Shown here: positions 16,198 to 21,883 of the stretch, in pieces
How positions within the stretch are numbered: position 1 is the first letter of the stretch
Layout: every line of letters starts with the position of its first letter
Sequence record: NC_052983.1
DNA: 58,536 bases
Direction: 5' to 3' (one strand)
From: Escherichia phage E21
Notes under the pieces: generated by a model
Told to the model about the DNA's origin: nothing
What the model saw: the letters and a program-made list of their open reading frames with translations, nothing else
Database searches by the model: none
Translations under genes and position numbers: made by a program

Positions 16198-16887
16198 CTA
16201 GCGATCCATAAATTGAGTATTTGCTATTCCGTGTGGGTTAATGACAATATCCCCGTAGGTGTCCGCGACAACGTTTAACACAATCCCCACGCTAGAATCG
16301 AACTGGTCGCAAAATAAATCGCCATCGCTGACTAGGTAAGGCTGGCGGAGTGTTTGCAGGTCAGTTAATACGGTGAGTGTGTTCAAGTTCTCCCCCGCGT
16401 CTAGCTCTGATTGCGTTAGTTCCTCGTCCTCTAGAACTTTCTCCCCTTGACATACTAGAACCGATTTACCGTTATCTTTCGCCAAGGGTGAGGTAATTAA
16501 ATAACAATCGTTTTTCCATGTGCCGAGATTCACGCCACCAATCAACGACGGAATGATTAACGGCGTTTTGACCTCACCTAGTAGTGTATTTATCGGCAAT
16601 AAATCAACGTGGAGAAAGTCGAACGAGTGAAAGCCGGTATTATGCGCTACGATCAGCTTTTCCATGCCATGCGCCCAAAAGCGCACACGGTTAAACCTAT
16701 CTTCCGGAACCATGCCAAGAGACTCAACGTCGCCCAGTTCATGACCCATTTTATGCAAGTGGTACGAAGCCCCACTGGCTTTAGTGCGGAAATCTTCAAA
16801 GCTAATATTTGTATGGAAAACGGCGCCCGCTTTAGTGTGGATCTTCATGTCAAACGTGTTTTGAGTACAACCAGTTAATACGATCAT
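16198..16887 (-). CDS. hypothetical protein
   Basis: 229-aa ORF; RBS AAAGGA upstream. Confidence 0.5.
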   Translation of the reverse strand: MIVLTGCTQNTFDMKIHTKAGAVFHTNISFEDFRTKASGASYHLHKMGHELGDVESLGMVPEDRFNRVRFWAHGMEKLIVAHNTGFHSFDFLHVDLLPINTLLGEVKTPLIIPSLIGGVNLGTWKNDCYLITSPLAKDNGKSVLVCQGEKVLEDEELTQSELDAGENLNTLTVLTDLQTLRQPYLVSDGDLFCDQFDSSVGIVLNVVADTYGDIVINPHGIANTQFMDR

Positions 16888-16936: not shown

Positions 16937-17737
16937 TTAGTTTCTTTGAGGTAACGGGCGAAACTCAATGCGACGAGAACCACCCTCAATCATGAAATTC
17001 TCGATCACTGATGACAGTCGGGCTTTCTGGTTTACTGCGATAGTCTCATAGTCACCGCGCCAACCGTACACCCGTAAAACTTTCGTCGGCGCACTATGCG
17101 ATAGAATGGCGAGGTTCCCATTGCGTATATCGTAGGCCAAACGGTCGAGGGTGTATATCATTGACCACACATATTGTAAGTCGTTATTAAACATCGTATT
17201 TATAGACACGATAATCTTGATCGCCCCTTGATTGTTTATAGCACTTTTGAAGTTTAGAACTTGGCCACGATATACGACACCAAACGACTTGCGAACGATC
17301 AAGAGGCTATCCATAAGCACTAAATCCAATGGGTCGGCTTTCTCCGCTTTACGCGTCATCTCCTTGATTCCTCTACGTTGCTGTGCGCTTGGTTGCATTG
17401 ATTTACGCAATGATACGTGAAGCGGTTTATCTAGGGATACGGTTTTATTTGATAACTCGGTCAAGTAGTCAACAGAACCACACGCACGGATCTTGTTCTC
17501 GACGATATTAAAACTTCCGGCTTCTACGGTTTCGGTTGCCACTTTCTCGCCCACGATAACGGTGATAAAGGCTTTATACGTTAGTTTTTCGCCGGCGGAA
17601 TATTTAACTTTGATAGATGCGGTCGCGTCTTTATTCGTGTAAGTAACCGTTTCATAGTGCGTAGGATTAGCTTTGATAACGTTACAAATTTGACGTAATT
17701 CCGCACGTTCTGAAGCACCGATAGTAATCTTTTTCAT
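16937..17737 (-). CDS. hypothetical protein
   Basis: 266 aa; preceded by promoter/leader cassette A and RBS GAGGA. Confidence 0.55.
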   Translation of the reverse strand: MKKITIGASERAELRQICNVIKANPTHYETVTYTNKDATASIKVKYSAGEKLTYKAFITVIVGEKVATETVEAGSFNIVENKIRACGSVDYLTELSNKTVSLDKPLHVSLRKSMQPSAQQRRGIKEMTRKAEKADPLDLVLMDSLLIVRKSFGVVYRGQVLNFKSAINNQGAIKIIVSINTMFNNDLQYVWSMIYTLDRLAYDIRNGNLAILSHSAPTKVLRVYGWRGDYETIAVNQKARLSSVIENFMIEGGSRRIEFRPLPQRN

Positions 17738-17790
17738 TTTAAAATCCTCAATACTGGTTAAAGTTTCCGGTTCGTTCCGGCTATGTGTGT

Positions 17791-17819
17791 AATATAATGC
17801 TACCGCTTTCAGGTGTCAA
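17791..17819 (-). promoter_or_regulatory. sigma70-like promoter, cassette A (TTGACA-17-TATATT) with conserved leader
   Basis: Minus-strand TTGACAcctgaaagcggtagcatTATATT; ~85-bp cassette repeated near-identically at 19510..19590 and 21000..21075. Confidence 0.6.
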
Positions 17820-17898
17820 CATGTTTTTATAATTATTTTAGATAATAAAAAAGGACGGCCACCAGAAAAGATGACCGCCCCGATTGTTGATGCTTCGA

Positions 17899-18120
17899 TT
17901 ACCGTGTGAGCATCGTAACCACGGATTTTTTAACCATTTCCAAGGAATCCCCGCCAAGGCTCACACCTTGCCCGCAGAAAGTCCACGGCTTGAGGTGGTG
18001 TGGTGTCTTGGCAATCGTCCCGATCCATACACCGCCCGCAACAACGTAATAAATATTTTCGCCTCGCTCTTGGTAAATCTCGATCGTCTTATCCAAGGTT
18101 GGATTATTTACCGGCTTCAT
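17899..18120 (-). CDS. hypothetical protein
   Basis: Track ORF 17899..18174 trimmed to internal Met (MKPVNN) to limit overlap with upstream gene. Confidence 0.35.
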   Translation of the reverse strand: MKPVNNPTLDKTIEIYQERGENIYYVVAGGVWIGTIAKTPHHLKPWTFCGQGVSLGGDSLEMVKKSVVTMLTR

Positions 18121-18754
18121 TTTCTCCCCCTTTAATCTTAACGAGTTCTTGCTTGTACTCGGATCCGAGCACATAATTTTTATTTTCTTCCTTGGGATAA
18201 GGCAATACCGGATATCGAAGCAACTTTTTATACTTCTTCACGACCGAACGGCTCCCCGTAAAATAAACGTAACGATGCTTAGATGTTCTGACTTGTCGAT
18301 ACGTCTTGCTTTCCTTTCCTTGATAATGCCGAGAGTGTTTACCTTGCTCCGTGTATTTATCGGTGCGCGCTTTCGTCGCCCCCGTGTAGATGAAATTAGA
18401 CGCTTGATAAATATATCCGTTGTGGTTCATACCGCGATCCGCATACGACACGATGACAAGGTTTTCACTTTTCAACTCAGCCATAGCGAAGGCGATCAAC
18501 TGCGACGGAGCGTTACGGATTGGACGAATAAAACAAAGTCGGTTTAACTCAAAAACGTGGCTTTTGTACTCCTCGCCCAATATTCCAACACATAGCGGGT
18601 TGCTGGCCGGCTTACCGATAGTTAGAACCCCGACAAGCTCCTCGTCTTCGAAGAACCCGAAAGCGTAAGATATGCTAGGTCGACGTTTCGCATAATGGTA
18701 GTTTAGGATTATGTCTAAACAGTCTTTAGGATCAACGCGTCTCATCGTGTACAC
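18104..18754 (-). CDS. hypothetical protein with GNAT-like C-terminal motif (possible acyltransferase / Mom-like)
   Basis: 216 aa; ...IVSYADRGMNHNGYIYQASNFIYTG resembles GNAT motif B; assignment is tentative. Confidence 0.45.
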   Translation of the reverse strand: MYTMRRVDPKDCLDIILNYHYAKRRPSISYAFGFFEDEELVGVLTIGKPASNPLCVGILGEEYKSHVFELNRLCFIRPIRNAPSQLIAFAMAELKSENLVIVSYADRGMNHNGYIYQASNFIYTGATKARTDKYTEQGKHSRHYQGKESKTYRQVRTSKHRYVYFTGSRSVVKKYKKLLRYPVLPYPKEENKNYVLGSEYKQELVKIKGGENEAGK

Positions 18755-18757
18755 GTT

Positions 18758-19498
18758 TTAACCCTCCCACGTCCACGATTCTGAGGCGTCACGAACAATA
18801 ATTTCGGCCGGACGATTCGCGCGTATCGCAACGTCTTTACCATCAACGAAGTAGACCGCGAAAAAATGCCCGAACACGTCGCCATCTTTCACGTGGATTT
18901 CTCGCCCGTCGTCTTCGCAGTAGAACACTGTAAGCCCGTCAACTGATGCTTCGTTGTTCACTTCGAAACCAAGGCTTGACAGGCCGTCTAACAGTGGGCG
19001 CATTGTGTCGAAACTTTCAGGGAGTGACGCCAAGATCAAGGCGTCTAAATCGCTAACCGCGTTACGTTTAAGCGTCACACACCCGCCGATCGTGAAAGTT
19101 ATGTCCCAACCTTCGGCTTCTTCGCCACGGCTAAAAAATATGGCTTTTAATTCTTTCCCGTCGATTGTTTTCGCAAATGTTGTCGCTCCGTGAGATTTAT
19201 CAAGGTCTAAAGAGAACCCCAGCGCTTTCATTACGGCGATAGTTCGTGCGGATAAGTCCGCATCATTGGCCATATGACAGCTCGCACCATGATCGAACAC
19301 GCTCACCTCGACGCTCTCAAATAGGTAACGTGCTAGTGGAATGAATTTATCGAAATCCGCAATTAATGCTATCGCCCCCGATAATGTTTTAACATCGCCC
19401 ACCTTGGCGCGAGGGTTAACTGTCAAAATATAATTACGAACACTTTCGGGCATATCAAAAGGGCTGTTATCGGTTACAACGTTAGAAATGAAAGTCAT
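18758..19498 (-). CDS. hypothetical protein
   Basis: 246 aa; preceded by promoter cassette B and RBS GAGGA. Confidence 0.55.
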   Translation of the reverse strand: MTFISNVVTDNSPFDMPESVRNYILTVNPRAKVGDVKTLSGAIALIADFDKFIPLARYLFESVEVSVFDHGASCHMANDADLSARTIAVMKALGFSLDLDKSHGATTFAKTIDGKELKAIFFSRGEEAEGWDITFTIGGCVTLKRNAVSDLDALILASLPESFDTMRPLLDGLSSLGFEVNNEASVDGLTVFYCEDDGREIHVKDGDVFGHFFAVYFVDGKDVAIRANRPAEIIVRDASESWTWEG

Positions 19499-19552
19499 GA
19501 TTTAAATCCTCAAAACTGGTTTAAGTTTCCGGTTCGTTCCGGCGATGTGAGT

Positions 19553-19581
19553 AATATAATACTACCGCTTTCAGGTGTCAA
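19553..19581 (-). promoter_or_regulatory. sigma70-like promoter, cassette B (TTGACA-17-TATATT)
   Basis: Near-identical to cassettes A and C. Confidence 0.6.
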
Positions 19582-19609
19582 CAAGTTTTTTATAAATATT
19601 TTAGGCAAT

Positions 19610-19729: not shown

Positions 19730-19758
19730 GAAAAGAAAAAAGCCCGCATATACGGGCT
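19730..19758 (-). terminator. rho-independent terminator
   Basis: Minus RNA AGCCCG-UAUAUG-CGGGCU followed by UUUUUCUUUUCC. Confidence 0.65.
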
Positions 19759-20047
19759 TAAAATATAAGGCTTAATGACCTAAAATTACGCAAACTTTAC
19801 GAAGTGTGGCACAAGCAACCCAAATCAACCAACGGATGCGAACTTATCCACCGTTGAGCCGAACAATAACACCGTTACGTGGTGCTGTCAAGCGTCGCTA
19901 CACATAGCCCAATTGAACCGCGCCACGGTGAATATATCCCACAGGATACGCACTTTAATCGAAACAAAACTAGCCCGTTACTACTGCGAGCCTCAGATCT
20001 AAACGGCTTACCGCATGAACAATAATACCAGTTTTTCTTTTCCCTGA

Positions 20048-20413
20048 TCACCATACAGACCCCCTTACGTTCGTTAGCGTGTCCCTATAACTCCGGTATA
20101 AATTTTTTGCGCCTCGTATCCATTCGCCGGCGATCTCCCCCGAGAAAAGAACCGGCTCGTAAACCGGATAAGTGACATTAGGGTAATCCGTTCTTACGTC
20201 GTCGATCCTAACGTATGCCCTCCGGTGTCCATAAGAATATCGGACGGTTAGGACTCTAAGCAACTTGTTGTTAACATGGAACACCACGCCATAAGAGTAA
20301 TTAAATTCCGGTAATGATAAATCGTTGCTAGGCCTCCCGATAGCCACTACCGGTAGATTTAGAAACTCATTACAAACCTCATAAAATTTGAAACAATTTA
20401 CTGAGTTACCCAT
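20048..20413 (-). CDS. hypothetical protein
   Basis: Track ORF 20048..20515 trimmed to internal Met (MGNSVN), which overlaps the stop of the upstream gene. Confidence 0.45.
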   Translation of the reverse strand: MGNSVNCFKFYEVCNEFLNLPVVAIGRPSNDLSLPEFNYSYGVVFHVNNKLLRVLTVRYSYGHRRAYVRIDDVRTDYPNVTYPVYEPVLFSGEIAGEWIRGAKNLYRSYRDTLTNVRGSVW

Positions 20414-20975
20414 GATATACAACCCCGCGCAGTTCCAGACCTCGGAAATTATAATAAATTTCAGACTCTCCGGCTTCGTTCGGCGCCCACATGCACACAG
20501 AAAAGTCGCCAGCATCGAACTCTCTTAGGTGTGGAATGTGACCGAAACGGCACCCGCCAGTGATTACCAGTTCGTCGATTGTTCCGAACTCCTCGCAACC
20601 CTCGACAACTTCTTCCAGTGCTTCGGCCAGTTCTTCGATGTAGGCTTCCACTTGTTCACGCCAAGACGCGCTTATTAATGCGTTAGCTTCCATCATCAAA
20701 CATTTTAATGAACTTTTGCACCCGCTGAAATCTAAAGGCGTTTCTAGCTCAACAGAATCAAACTCGCTAGACTGGACGATCTCCCATGCTTCCCCGAAGT
20801 AGTCGACGCTGATACATTCCGGCGCATTCATAAGATTATTTTCTTCGAAAAGGTCGCGTAATTGATTTTCGAAATCTCCGCGGGTATCTAATGAAGTTCC
20901 TTTAGGTAGACCCGTACTAACATCATCAACGATAGATTGGAAGATAGACGCTTTAGTGTATGCTAATTCTGCCAT
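20406..20975 (-). CDS. strongly acidic hypothetical protein (DNA-mimic-like composition)
   Basis: 189 aa from ATG 20975 (RBS GAGGA 8 nt upstream); ~40 D/E versus ~11 K/R; preceded by promoter cassette C. Confidence 0.5.
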   Translation of the reverse strand: MAELAYTKASIFQSIVDDVSTGLPKGTSLDTRGDFENQLRDLFEENNLMNAPECISVDYFGEAWEIVQSSEFDSVELETPLDFSGCKSSLKCLMMEANALISASWREQVEAYIEELAEALEEVVEGCEEFGTIDELVITGGCRFGHIPHLREFDAGDFSVCMWAPNEAGESEIYYNFRGLELRGVVYHG

Positions 20976-21029
20976 GGTAATACTCCTCAATACTGGTTAA
21001 AGTTTCCGGTTCGTTCCGGCTATGTGTGT

Positions 21030-21058
21030 AATATAATACTACCGCTTTCAGGTGTCAA
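21030..21058 (-). promoter_or_regulatory. sigma70-like promoter, cassette C (TTGACA-17-TATATT)
   Basis: Near-identical to cassettes A and B. Confidence 0.6.
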
Positions 21059-21080
21059 CATGTTTTTGTGATTATTTTAA

Positions 21081-21482
21081 TCAATCGGGGAAATAGGGAA
21101 TTTTACACTCACATAAGGTCAGATTTTCTATGTGGGTAAAAATAACCTCTAAGTGCAACGTCTTCCAGCACTGACCAGAATTAAGGAAATGCCGGCGGAT
21201 AATGAGCCAGCCCCGATCATCTTCGACTATTCCGGATATGCGAAGGCTTACAATAGTTTTGTTGTCTGAGTAAGCCGGTTTACTCTCCGGATCAGCTCGG
21301 AAGTAAAACGCATTAGCTAGGTTTAAAATAGTCTGTATGTCGTGCGTAGATAGTTGTAACTCTTTTTCGTGCGGACTCAAGAACGAAGAAAGCCGGGATC
21401 TCGCCCGGCGTGAATTGGTATCTTTAGGAACTGATGAAAAGTATGTCACACCGTCCACCCCATCAACTGTATAATCGCTCAA
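21081..21482 (-). CDS. hypothetical protein
   Basis: 133 aa; TTG start with RBS GAGGTG upstream. Confidence 0.4.
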   Translation of the reverse strand: MSDYTVDGVDGVTYFSSVPKDTNSRRARSRLSSFLSPHEKELQLSTHDIQTILNLANAFYFRADPESKPAYSDNKTIVSLRISGIVEDDRGWLIIRRHFLNSGQCWKTLHLEVIFTHIENLTLCECKIPYFPD

Positions 21483-21654
21483 AACTTTTCACCTCTCGAT
21501 GTGTAACCGTTCGATTATATGAAATGTTACGAGTTAACATAAAGCGCATATCCCACGCCGGACAGAATAGCGAACCGTCTGCGTTTACCGTAACTTTTTC
21601 GTCGTCAGCGATTAAAATCATACCGCTGTTTAATGTGATTTTATTCTTCATCAT
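21463..21654 (-). CDS. hypothetical small protein
   Basis: Track ORF trimmed to internal Met (MMKNKITL). Confidence 0.3.
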   Translation of the reverse strand: MMKNKITLNSGMILIADDEKVTVNADGSLFCPAWDMRFMLTRNISYNRTVTHREVKSFERLYS

Positions 21655-21883
21655 TACCGCCCCCACGTATCGCAGATATAAACGCCTCCCCGCTCTCCTG
21701 ATCAGGCCACGCAATCCCGCCGACCACCCCAAACGCTACCCCATAAAGACAGAAACGCGCGACGGTTAGATCACCATATACGGCCAAAGTTCCCACCGCC
21801 CCCGCGAACCCTACCGCACAAAGAGACGCGACGACAAAACCAAACGCCCCGCGAGCCTCTAAATTATTTAATTTCTTAGCCAT
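21641..21883 (-). CDS. small membrane protein (2 TM)
   Basis: 80 aa; hydrophobic helices FGFVVASLCAVGFAGAVGTLAV and FCLYGVAFGVVGGIAW. Confidence 0.45.
   Translation of the reverse strand: MAKKLNNLEARGAFGFVVASLCAVGFAGAVGTLAVYGDLTVARFCLYGVAFGVVGGIAWPDQESGEAFISAIRGGGNDEE

Follow-up and report, generated by a model that had tools for sequence, protein, structure and literature searches.

Here, we have analysed the 58,536-bp genome sequence of Escherichia phage E21 (NC_052983.1; hereafter the window, meaning this whole stretch of DNA) and propose that a strongly acidic protein of 189 residues, encoded on its minus strand at 20406..20975, is a diverged and extended DNA mimic of the Ocr type, expressed early and blocking type I restriction-modification (R-M) and/or BREX-type defence. 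We give this proposal somewhat better than an even chance of being correct. Ocr, the textbook DNA mimic, competes with DNA and thereby inhibits type I R-M and BREX; it also triggers PARIS. A preliminary description of the sequence had suggested, from amino acid composition, that the protein could be an Ocr- or ArdA-like mimic, and had found no sequence similarity that it could assert. The part of this suggestion that concerns Ocr has gained support, since Ocr is the top match of a profile search against PDB sequences and aligns with the acidic family in a profile-profile comparison, while the part that concerns ArdA received none. The gene and the two regions of its product that enter the argument are as follows.

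20406..20975, minus strand: coding sequence of the 189-residue acidic protein (pI 4.1, net charge -27), belonging to PHROG 22351, a family of long, Ocr-like phage proteins
20592..20975, minus strand: putative Ocr-like helical domain (residues 1-128), with four helices and the first two family motifs
20409..20591, minus strand: extra C-terminal five-stranded beta-sheet (residues 129-189), which in the model packs on the long helix and carries the motif G145-x3-H149-x2-E152

Evidence for a relationship with Ocr

The gene begins with an ATG at 20975-20973, consists of 189 codons and a stop, and has the sequence GAGGAG (20988-20983) 7 nt 5' of the start codon; its product is named hypothetical in all GenBank records. 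About 40 Asp/Glu against about 11 Lys/Arg had been counted in the preliminary description, which also pointed to a Glu-rich segment. The exact figures are 38 acidic (27 Glu and 11 Asp) against 11 basic residues (4 Lys and 7 Arg), and the segment, EAYIEELAEALEEVVEGCEEF, is found at residues 110-130. The calculated pI of 4.10 and net charge of about -27 compare with 4.05 and -28 for T7 Ocr, which has 34 acidic and 6 basic residues. Among the 70 open reading frames (ORFs) of at least 100 codons in the window the protein ranks first in acidity, with a net acidic fraction of 0.143 vs 0.070 for the runner-up.

Searches with the single sequence gave no Pfam match even at E<=10 and none in NCBIfam, and only a designed helical protein (E 1) among PDB sequences. 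In PHROGs the protein matches phrog_22351 only, a family of unknown function, and in PADLOC the sole match was QatB at E 0.039, which we treated as noise. A word-indexed search for homologues returned four close clusters (at 90%), consisting of Lavrentievavirus phages, Providencia phage Kokobel1 and two metagenomic sequences, and little was gained when it was rerun with a family profile. An exhaustive hidden Markov model (HMM) search started from the profile of close homologues retrieved 53 cluster representatives at E<=1e-3, most of them near full length; for 18 the E-value was 1e-10 or lower. From these, 44 members of 167-198 residues, also near full length, were aligned. Their net charge lies between -21 and -40 in 44/44, down to about 22-25% identity. 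Since this charge is kept despite a mean column identity of 26%, we argue from the alignment that acidity is a selected property of the family and not an accident of one sequence.

The 44-member alignment also defines three motifs, Y-x2-EAW-x-IV, DFS-x-C-x2-A-x2-C-x3-EA and G-x3-H-x2-E. In the numbering of the E21 protein the first two start at Y59 and at D82-F-S and fall within residues 1-128, and the third is the C-terminal G145-x3-H149-x2-E152. Conservation in the family is highest at His149 (91%) and Glu152 (95%), together with Glu96/Ala97 of the long helix. A zinc site formed by Cys86, Cys92, His149 and Cys161 was considered and not adopted, some members having no or one Cys. The family occurs in siphoviruses (Casjensviridae), Ounavirinae and 98-kb Acinetobacter phages, with G+C contents of 34-63%. 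A partial match, to query residues 6-105 of 189, lies unannotated at the very end of the linear record of Acinetobacter phage TaPaz (MZ043613.1, 93414-93698 of 93703), where the start point chosen for the genome may have cut the gene in two. In plasmids, a tblastn search with one distant family member found nothing.

That the family is related to Ocr is suggested by profile comparisons. When the 44-sequence profile was run with hmmsearch against 177,635 distinct PDB sequences, Ocr was the top match (E 0.007), with profile positions 1-66 lying on Ocr residues 3-61, N-terminus to N-terminus. We then compared it by hhalign with an alignment of 21 diverse Ocr-family proteins, taken from Ocr homologues that all match PF08684, and obtained E 3.9e-5, a probability of 70.6% and a score of 34.1, collinear from residue 1. 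To exclude compositional artefacts the Ocr alignment was shuffled: 200 column shuffles scored 11.5 +/- 2.6 and 200 shuffles of seven-column blocks 13.9 +/- 2.6 (maximum 23.1), so that 34.1 was reached in 0/400; the reversed alignment scored 13.6. At a relaxed threshold the match spans the whole of Ocr, pairing the DF-x-x-C...EA motif with EFEDSGL...ILQAR of Ocr at low confidence. In the opposite direction, an HMM of the Ocr family was searched against a local set of 1,457 sequences, made up of the family members and every ORF of the window and of the loci around relatives. Family members came out on top, again collinear from the N-terminus, at 5-12 bits only.

Structure prediction points the same way. 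With an alignment of 5 sequences AlphaFold2 gave a predicted local distance difference test score (pLDDT) of 80.9, and with the 44-sequence alignment a pLDDT of 93.6 and a predicted template-modelling score of 0.87, with no low-confidence segments. The predicted helices comprise residues 8-22, 35-45 and 60-68 and a 40-residue helix at 89-128, and are followed by strands at 132-139, 151-155, 158-162, 170-177 and 180-187. The four helices A-D of the Ocr fold, with a long helix D, are present in this model, and residues 1-128 look like an Ocr-type domain. The structure search and the sequence search independently pick Ocr as the best match. An ordinary enzyme fold, the outcome that the preliminary description had named as speaking against a mimic, was not seen: matches to hot-dog folds were weaker and covered 62-66 residues only. 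Because two independent methods single out Ocr among the entries of very large libraries, each at modest significance, we regard homology as probable and not as proven.

The likeness has clear limits. T7 gp0.3 Ocr (PF08684; PDB 1S7Z) has about 117 residues vs 189 and shares about 14% identity with the acidic protein. Ocr-family proteins are 108-158 residues long, mostly 112-125, and the E21 protein departs from the single-domain, acidic-tailed form of about 115-120 residues. Where Ocr has its acidic tail the E21 protein has the five-stranded sheet with the conserved His149 and Glu152, and it differs further in an 11-residue insertion before helix C and in the conserved Cys86 and Cys92. The contigs of the listed Ocr homologues reach about 47 kb at most and many measure 38-46 kb, which would fit T7/SP6-like phages, whereas the acidic family is found in Casjensviridae, Ounavirinae and large Acinetobacter phages. 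A canonical Ocr, annotated 'DNA mimic protein', is carried by Proteus phage 309. Ocr is a homodimer, the surface carboxylates of which follow about 24 bp of bent B-DNA. The dimer interface of Ocr is formed by its N-terminal half (PMC4872106), which is also the part best conserved with the acidic protein, and we infer from this analogy alone a tie to dimerisation. A conserved glutamate of helix D in Ocr, E88, anchors a loop; in the predicted model the Glu96/His149/Glu152 cluster could have a structural role akin to it, or could be a functional site.

Other known mimics resemble the protein less. ArdA (PF07275; see PMC12548430) is an anti-restriction DNA mimic of conjugative elements, expressed early on DNA entry, and at about 166 residues it is similar in length to the E21 protein and likewise highly acidic; we found in the E21 protein neither a match to the ArdA family model nor the three-domain ArdA fold. 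T4 Arn, T7 gp5.9 and lambda Gam share the principle of a negatively charged viral protein that imitates DNA against a host enzyme. They are much shorter or have other folds, and our sequence and structure searches gave no match to any of the three.

Several results weigh against an Ocr-like mimic. The hhalign probability is only 71%, and the alignment is confident only over its first 61-69 or so columns. Two sub-family profiles, A5 and A6, do not recover Ocr when searched alone against the PDB sequences, so the sequence link depends on the full 44-sequence profile. PF08684 matches neither the acidic protein nor any of its 44 relatives at E<=0.1. Of the 50 matches listed by a Foldseek search of BFVD, none is to a protein named Ocr; the only significant one is A0A0A0RMX8 (176 residues, 28% identity), probably a relative. 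Acidic residues make up 20% of the protein, below the 29% of Ocr. Simple mimicry does not account for the conservation of His149 and Glu152 in the C-terminal domain, which could be the sign of another activity. Finally, our literature search found no paper describing the family.

Promoter cassettes, transcription units and genomic setting

Early expression of the gene by host RNA polymerase is suggested by what stands upstream of it, namely a near-consensus sigma-70 promoter and a strong ribosome-binding site (RBS), as read from the sequence. The elements of this region and the neighbouring genes are listed below.

20976..21075, minus strand: promoter cassette C, with an AT-rich upstream stretch, -35 element, 17-nt spacer, -10 element, 5' untranslated region (UTR) of about 45 nt and RBS
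17700-17830, 19500-19600 and 20976-21075, minus strand: the three cassettes, each with the AT-rich element, TTGACA-17-TATATT, 5' UTR and GAGGA RBS
20048..20422, minus strand: gene of 124 codons (product pI 8.9), its start overlapping the end of the acidic gene by 17 nt; gp64 in phage Inception
19875..20054, minus strand: gene of 59 codons with two CxxC pairs (zinc-ribbon-like), the third and last gene of unit C
19740..19759, minus strand: hairpin resembling an intrinsic terminator, from a terminator scan (8-bp stem, then a run of T), a short way 5' of promoter cassette B
18758-19498, minus strand: gene of a 246-residue acidic protein, first in the cassette-B unit and just upstream of the Mom-like gene
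18104-18745, minus strand: Mom-like DNA modification gene (PF25680, E 5e-35; PHROG 1384) of the cassette-B unit

Cassette C lies directly 5' of the acidic gene. A consensus scan found its -35 element, TTGACA, at 21058-21053 and its -10 element, TATATT, at 21035-21030 on the minus strand, matching the sigma-70 consensus at 11/12 positions; its RBS is the GAGGAG noted above. A block of about 100 bp that includes promoter, 5' UTR and RBS recurs nearly identically at 19581 and 17819, and the 33-nt core of the cassette is present in three copies in the window with at most one mismatch, compared with none such in 100 shuffles. The promoter cassette that the preliminary description had placed over the acidic gene is borne out by both its match to consensus and its threefold recurrence. 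About 100 bases are conserved in the alignment of the three copies, which reaches to the RBS, and the common 5' UTR contains CCGGAACGAACCGG. The entire 5' UTR is conserved alongside the promoter without significant RNA structure, and a structured RNA in it was rejected (z -0.84).

Each cassette heads its own small transcription unit, and the units are divided by terminator-like hairpins at 19759-19740 and 17881-17852, which precede units B and A; the former probably ends unit C. Unit C consists of the acidic gene, the overlapping gene of the basic 124-residue protein and the 59-codon CxxC gene. The 124-codon gene is probably co-transcribed and translationally coupled with the acidic gene, judging from the overlap. 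Its product has no match in Pfam, PHROG, PADLOC or NCBIfam, and it is kept only in Lavrentievavirus phages and Kokobel1, not beside distant members of the acidic family. Kokobel1 also has a homologue of the 59-codon CxxC gene at the same position, and an 11/12 promoter 90 nt upstream of its copy of the acidic gene.

As the Mom-like gene belongs to the unit adjoining the acidic gene, the phage appears, from this arrangement, to pair DNA modification with a putative DNA mimic. The 246-residue protein encoded upstream of the Mom-like gene (39 Asp/Glu vs 22 Lys/Arg, pI 4.6) matches PHROG 38602, of unknown function, has no match in Pfam or NCBIfam, and could by its composition be another mimic or anti-defence protein. 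The 229-residue product of 16198-16887 is likewise acidic, with a net charge of -14.

The genes around relatives of the acidic gene vary. One relative of about 30% identity (P0006) comes directly after a gap of 686 bp and is divergent from a module of RdgC, Dam and cytosine methylase, and in the vicinity of another (P0010) there are a Tad2-like gene and a DNA methylase. Other relatives lie within runs of small hypothetical genes in Ounavirinae phages of Hafnia and in 98-kb Acinetobacter phages. We looked for a conserved partner gene and rejected it, as neighbours are common only to the closest phages. Because of this restricted sharing, and of the range of G+C content, the distribution indicates that the acidic gene is a self-sufficient, horizontally mobile accessory gene, the pattern expected of an anti-defence factor. 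One family member has a Tad2-like gene (PF11195) at a distance of about 4 kb, and DUF5983 proteins recur near two others (locus L013, 3958-4191; L012, 9189-9818; L014, 1008-2372); such neighbours may add to the accessory or anti-defence genes that these regions carry.

The window is essentially a complete siphovirus genome of the Casjensviridae, genus Lavrentievavirus (Proteus mirabilis phage type), and over the 3 kb tested is 96-97% identical to Proteus phages pPM01, Isf-Pm1, Inception and others. The acidic gene is part of a run of small, mostly unannotated accessory genes on the minus strand at 14-22.3 kb, which diverges at about 22.3-22.7 kb from a plus-strand replication/recombination module. 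In this early region the match of a small ORF at 21463-21714 (minus strand) to PHROG 18953, 'tail protein', is confined to the C-terminal 64 residues of the latter. The label 'tail protein' that some records give here looks like a carry-over from a shared domain and not the sign of a real tail gene. We would like to point out that genomes of 94-97% identity have been deposited as 'Pseudomonas phage E21', 'Enterococcus phage AS-M1_NWU', 'Staphylococcus phage SVV09-A' and 'Salmonella phage SD-1x' (PV596763.1, OR506460.1, PV593182.1, OR699184-7). Such host labels are implausible for near-identical Proteus phages and suggest mis-assigned hosts or contamination.

Proposed mode of action and competing explanations

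Although the acidic protein falls outside the Pfam Ocr family, on present evidence it would work most like Ocr. Its N-terminal four-helix domain of about 128 residues, with the predicted Ocr fold, would be fused to a beta-sheet domain of about 60 residues. Upon entry of the phage DNA, host RNA polymerase would transcribe the gene from its near-consensus sigma-70 promoter, and the protein would build up as a highly negative, probably dimeric, DNA-shaped decoy. This decoy could fill the DNA-binding groove of methyltransferase-centred complexes, the candidates being type I R-M (the HsdM2S core) and/or PglX/BrxX of BREX, and unmodified phage DNA would be shielded up to the point where replication, and modification by the Mom-like and methyltransferase functions of the phage itself, take its place. 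The role of the C-terminal domain may be to lengthen the mimic outwards or to offer a further surface for contact; in a conserved dimer it would be found at each of the two outer ends. We also put forward, as a tentative idea with perhaps one chance in a few, that the proteins make up a two-domain branch of the Ocr superfamily, so far unrecognised and present in unrelated groups of phages, in which the C-terminal G-x3-H-x2-E domain adds a second function. Possibilities for that function are action on another class of defence protein, a longer mimic directed against larger complexes, or hiding from PARIS-like sensing of Ocr.

The same fold and charge would be expected if the protein were an Ocr-like mimic aimed at some other DNA-binding machine of the host, either as a host-takeover factor or as an inhibitor of a different defence. 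Candidate targets are RNA polymerase, RecBCD, MukBEF/SMC, nucleoid proteins and a type IV restriction enzyme. Ocr itself binds RNA polymerase as well (PMC4872106), other viral DNA mimics target MukBEF (PMC7617805), and the extra C-terminal domain with His149 and Glu152 could redirect specificity. We nevertheless consider such a change of target unlikely: no evidence favours any particular alternative, the main targets of the closest characterised relative are type I R-M and BREX, and the adjoining Mom-like gene suits an anti-restriction theme. Rather unlikely, too, is an explanation in which the charge does not serve DNA mimicry and the protein is a regulator, or a chaperone or neutraliser of a basic protein such as the 124-residue product, the likeness to Ocr being convergent or too old to inform on function. 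The 17-nt overlap with the gene of that basic product fits such a role, as do the weak link to Ocr and the unmatched Pfam Ocr model. However, the absence of the 124-codon gene beside distant family members implies that the acidic protein acts without a conserved partner, extreme acidity is kept across the whole family, and the agreement of structure and sequence searches on Ocr also argues against a non-mimic.

A further explanation starts from the way in which the C-terminal sheet wraps around the long helix, which recalls a hot-dog-like enzyme, a thioesterase or dehydratase, with Glu96, His149 and Glu152 as catalytic residues. We hold this to be very improbable. The hot-dog matches are short and of low Z, they rank below Ocr with the better model, and a full domain match was not found. 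Moreover, no thioesterase or dehydratase model in Pfam or NCBIfam matches any of the 44 members, the order of elements is helix followed by all strands whereas a hot-dog fold has a strand before its central helix, and enzymes of this kind do not usually carry a net charge near -27.

Significance

Recognised Ocr homologues, those of PF08684, are short proteins. If the acidic protein is a true functional relative of Ocr, mimicry of this type would reach Chi-like siphoviruses, FelixO1-like myoviruses and large Acinetobacter phages, in hosts of 34-63% G+C. It would represent a two-domain form of Ocr that is missed by current annotation tools, with no model in Pfam, NCBIfam or PADLOC, and would provide annotation resources with a new anti-defence family. 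The family would also be a natural experiment on how far a DNA mimic can diverge. For the Proteus mirabilis phages that are under development for therapy, an anti-defence protein of this kind would be relevant to their host range.
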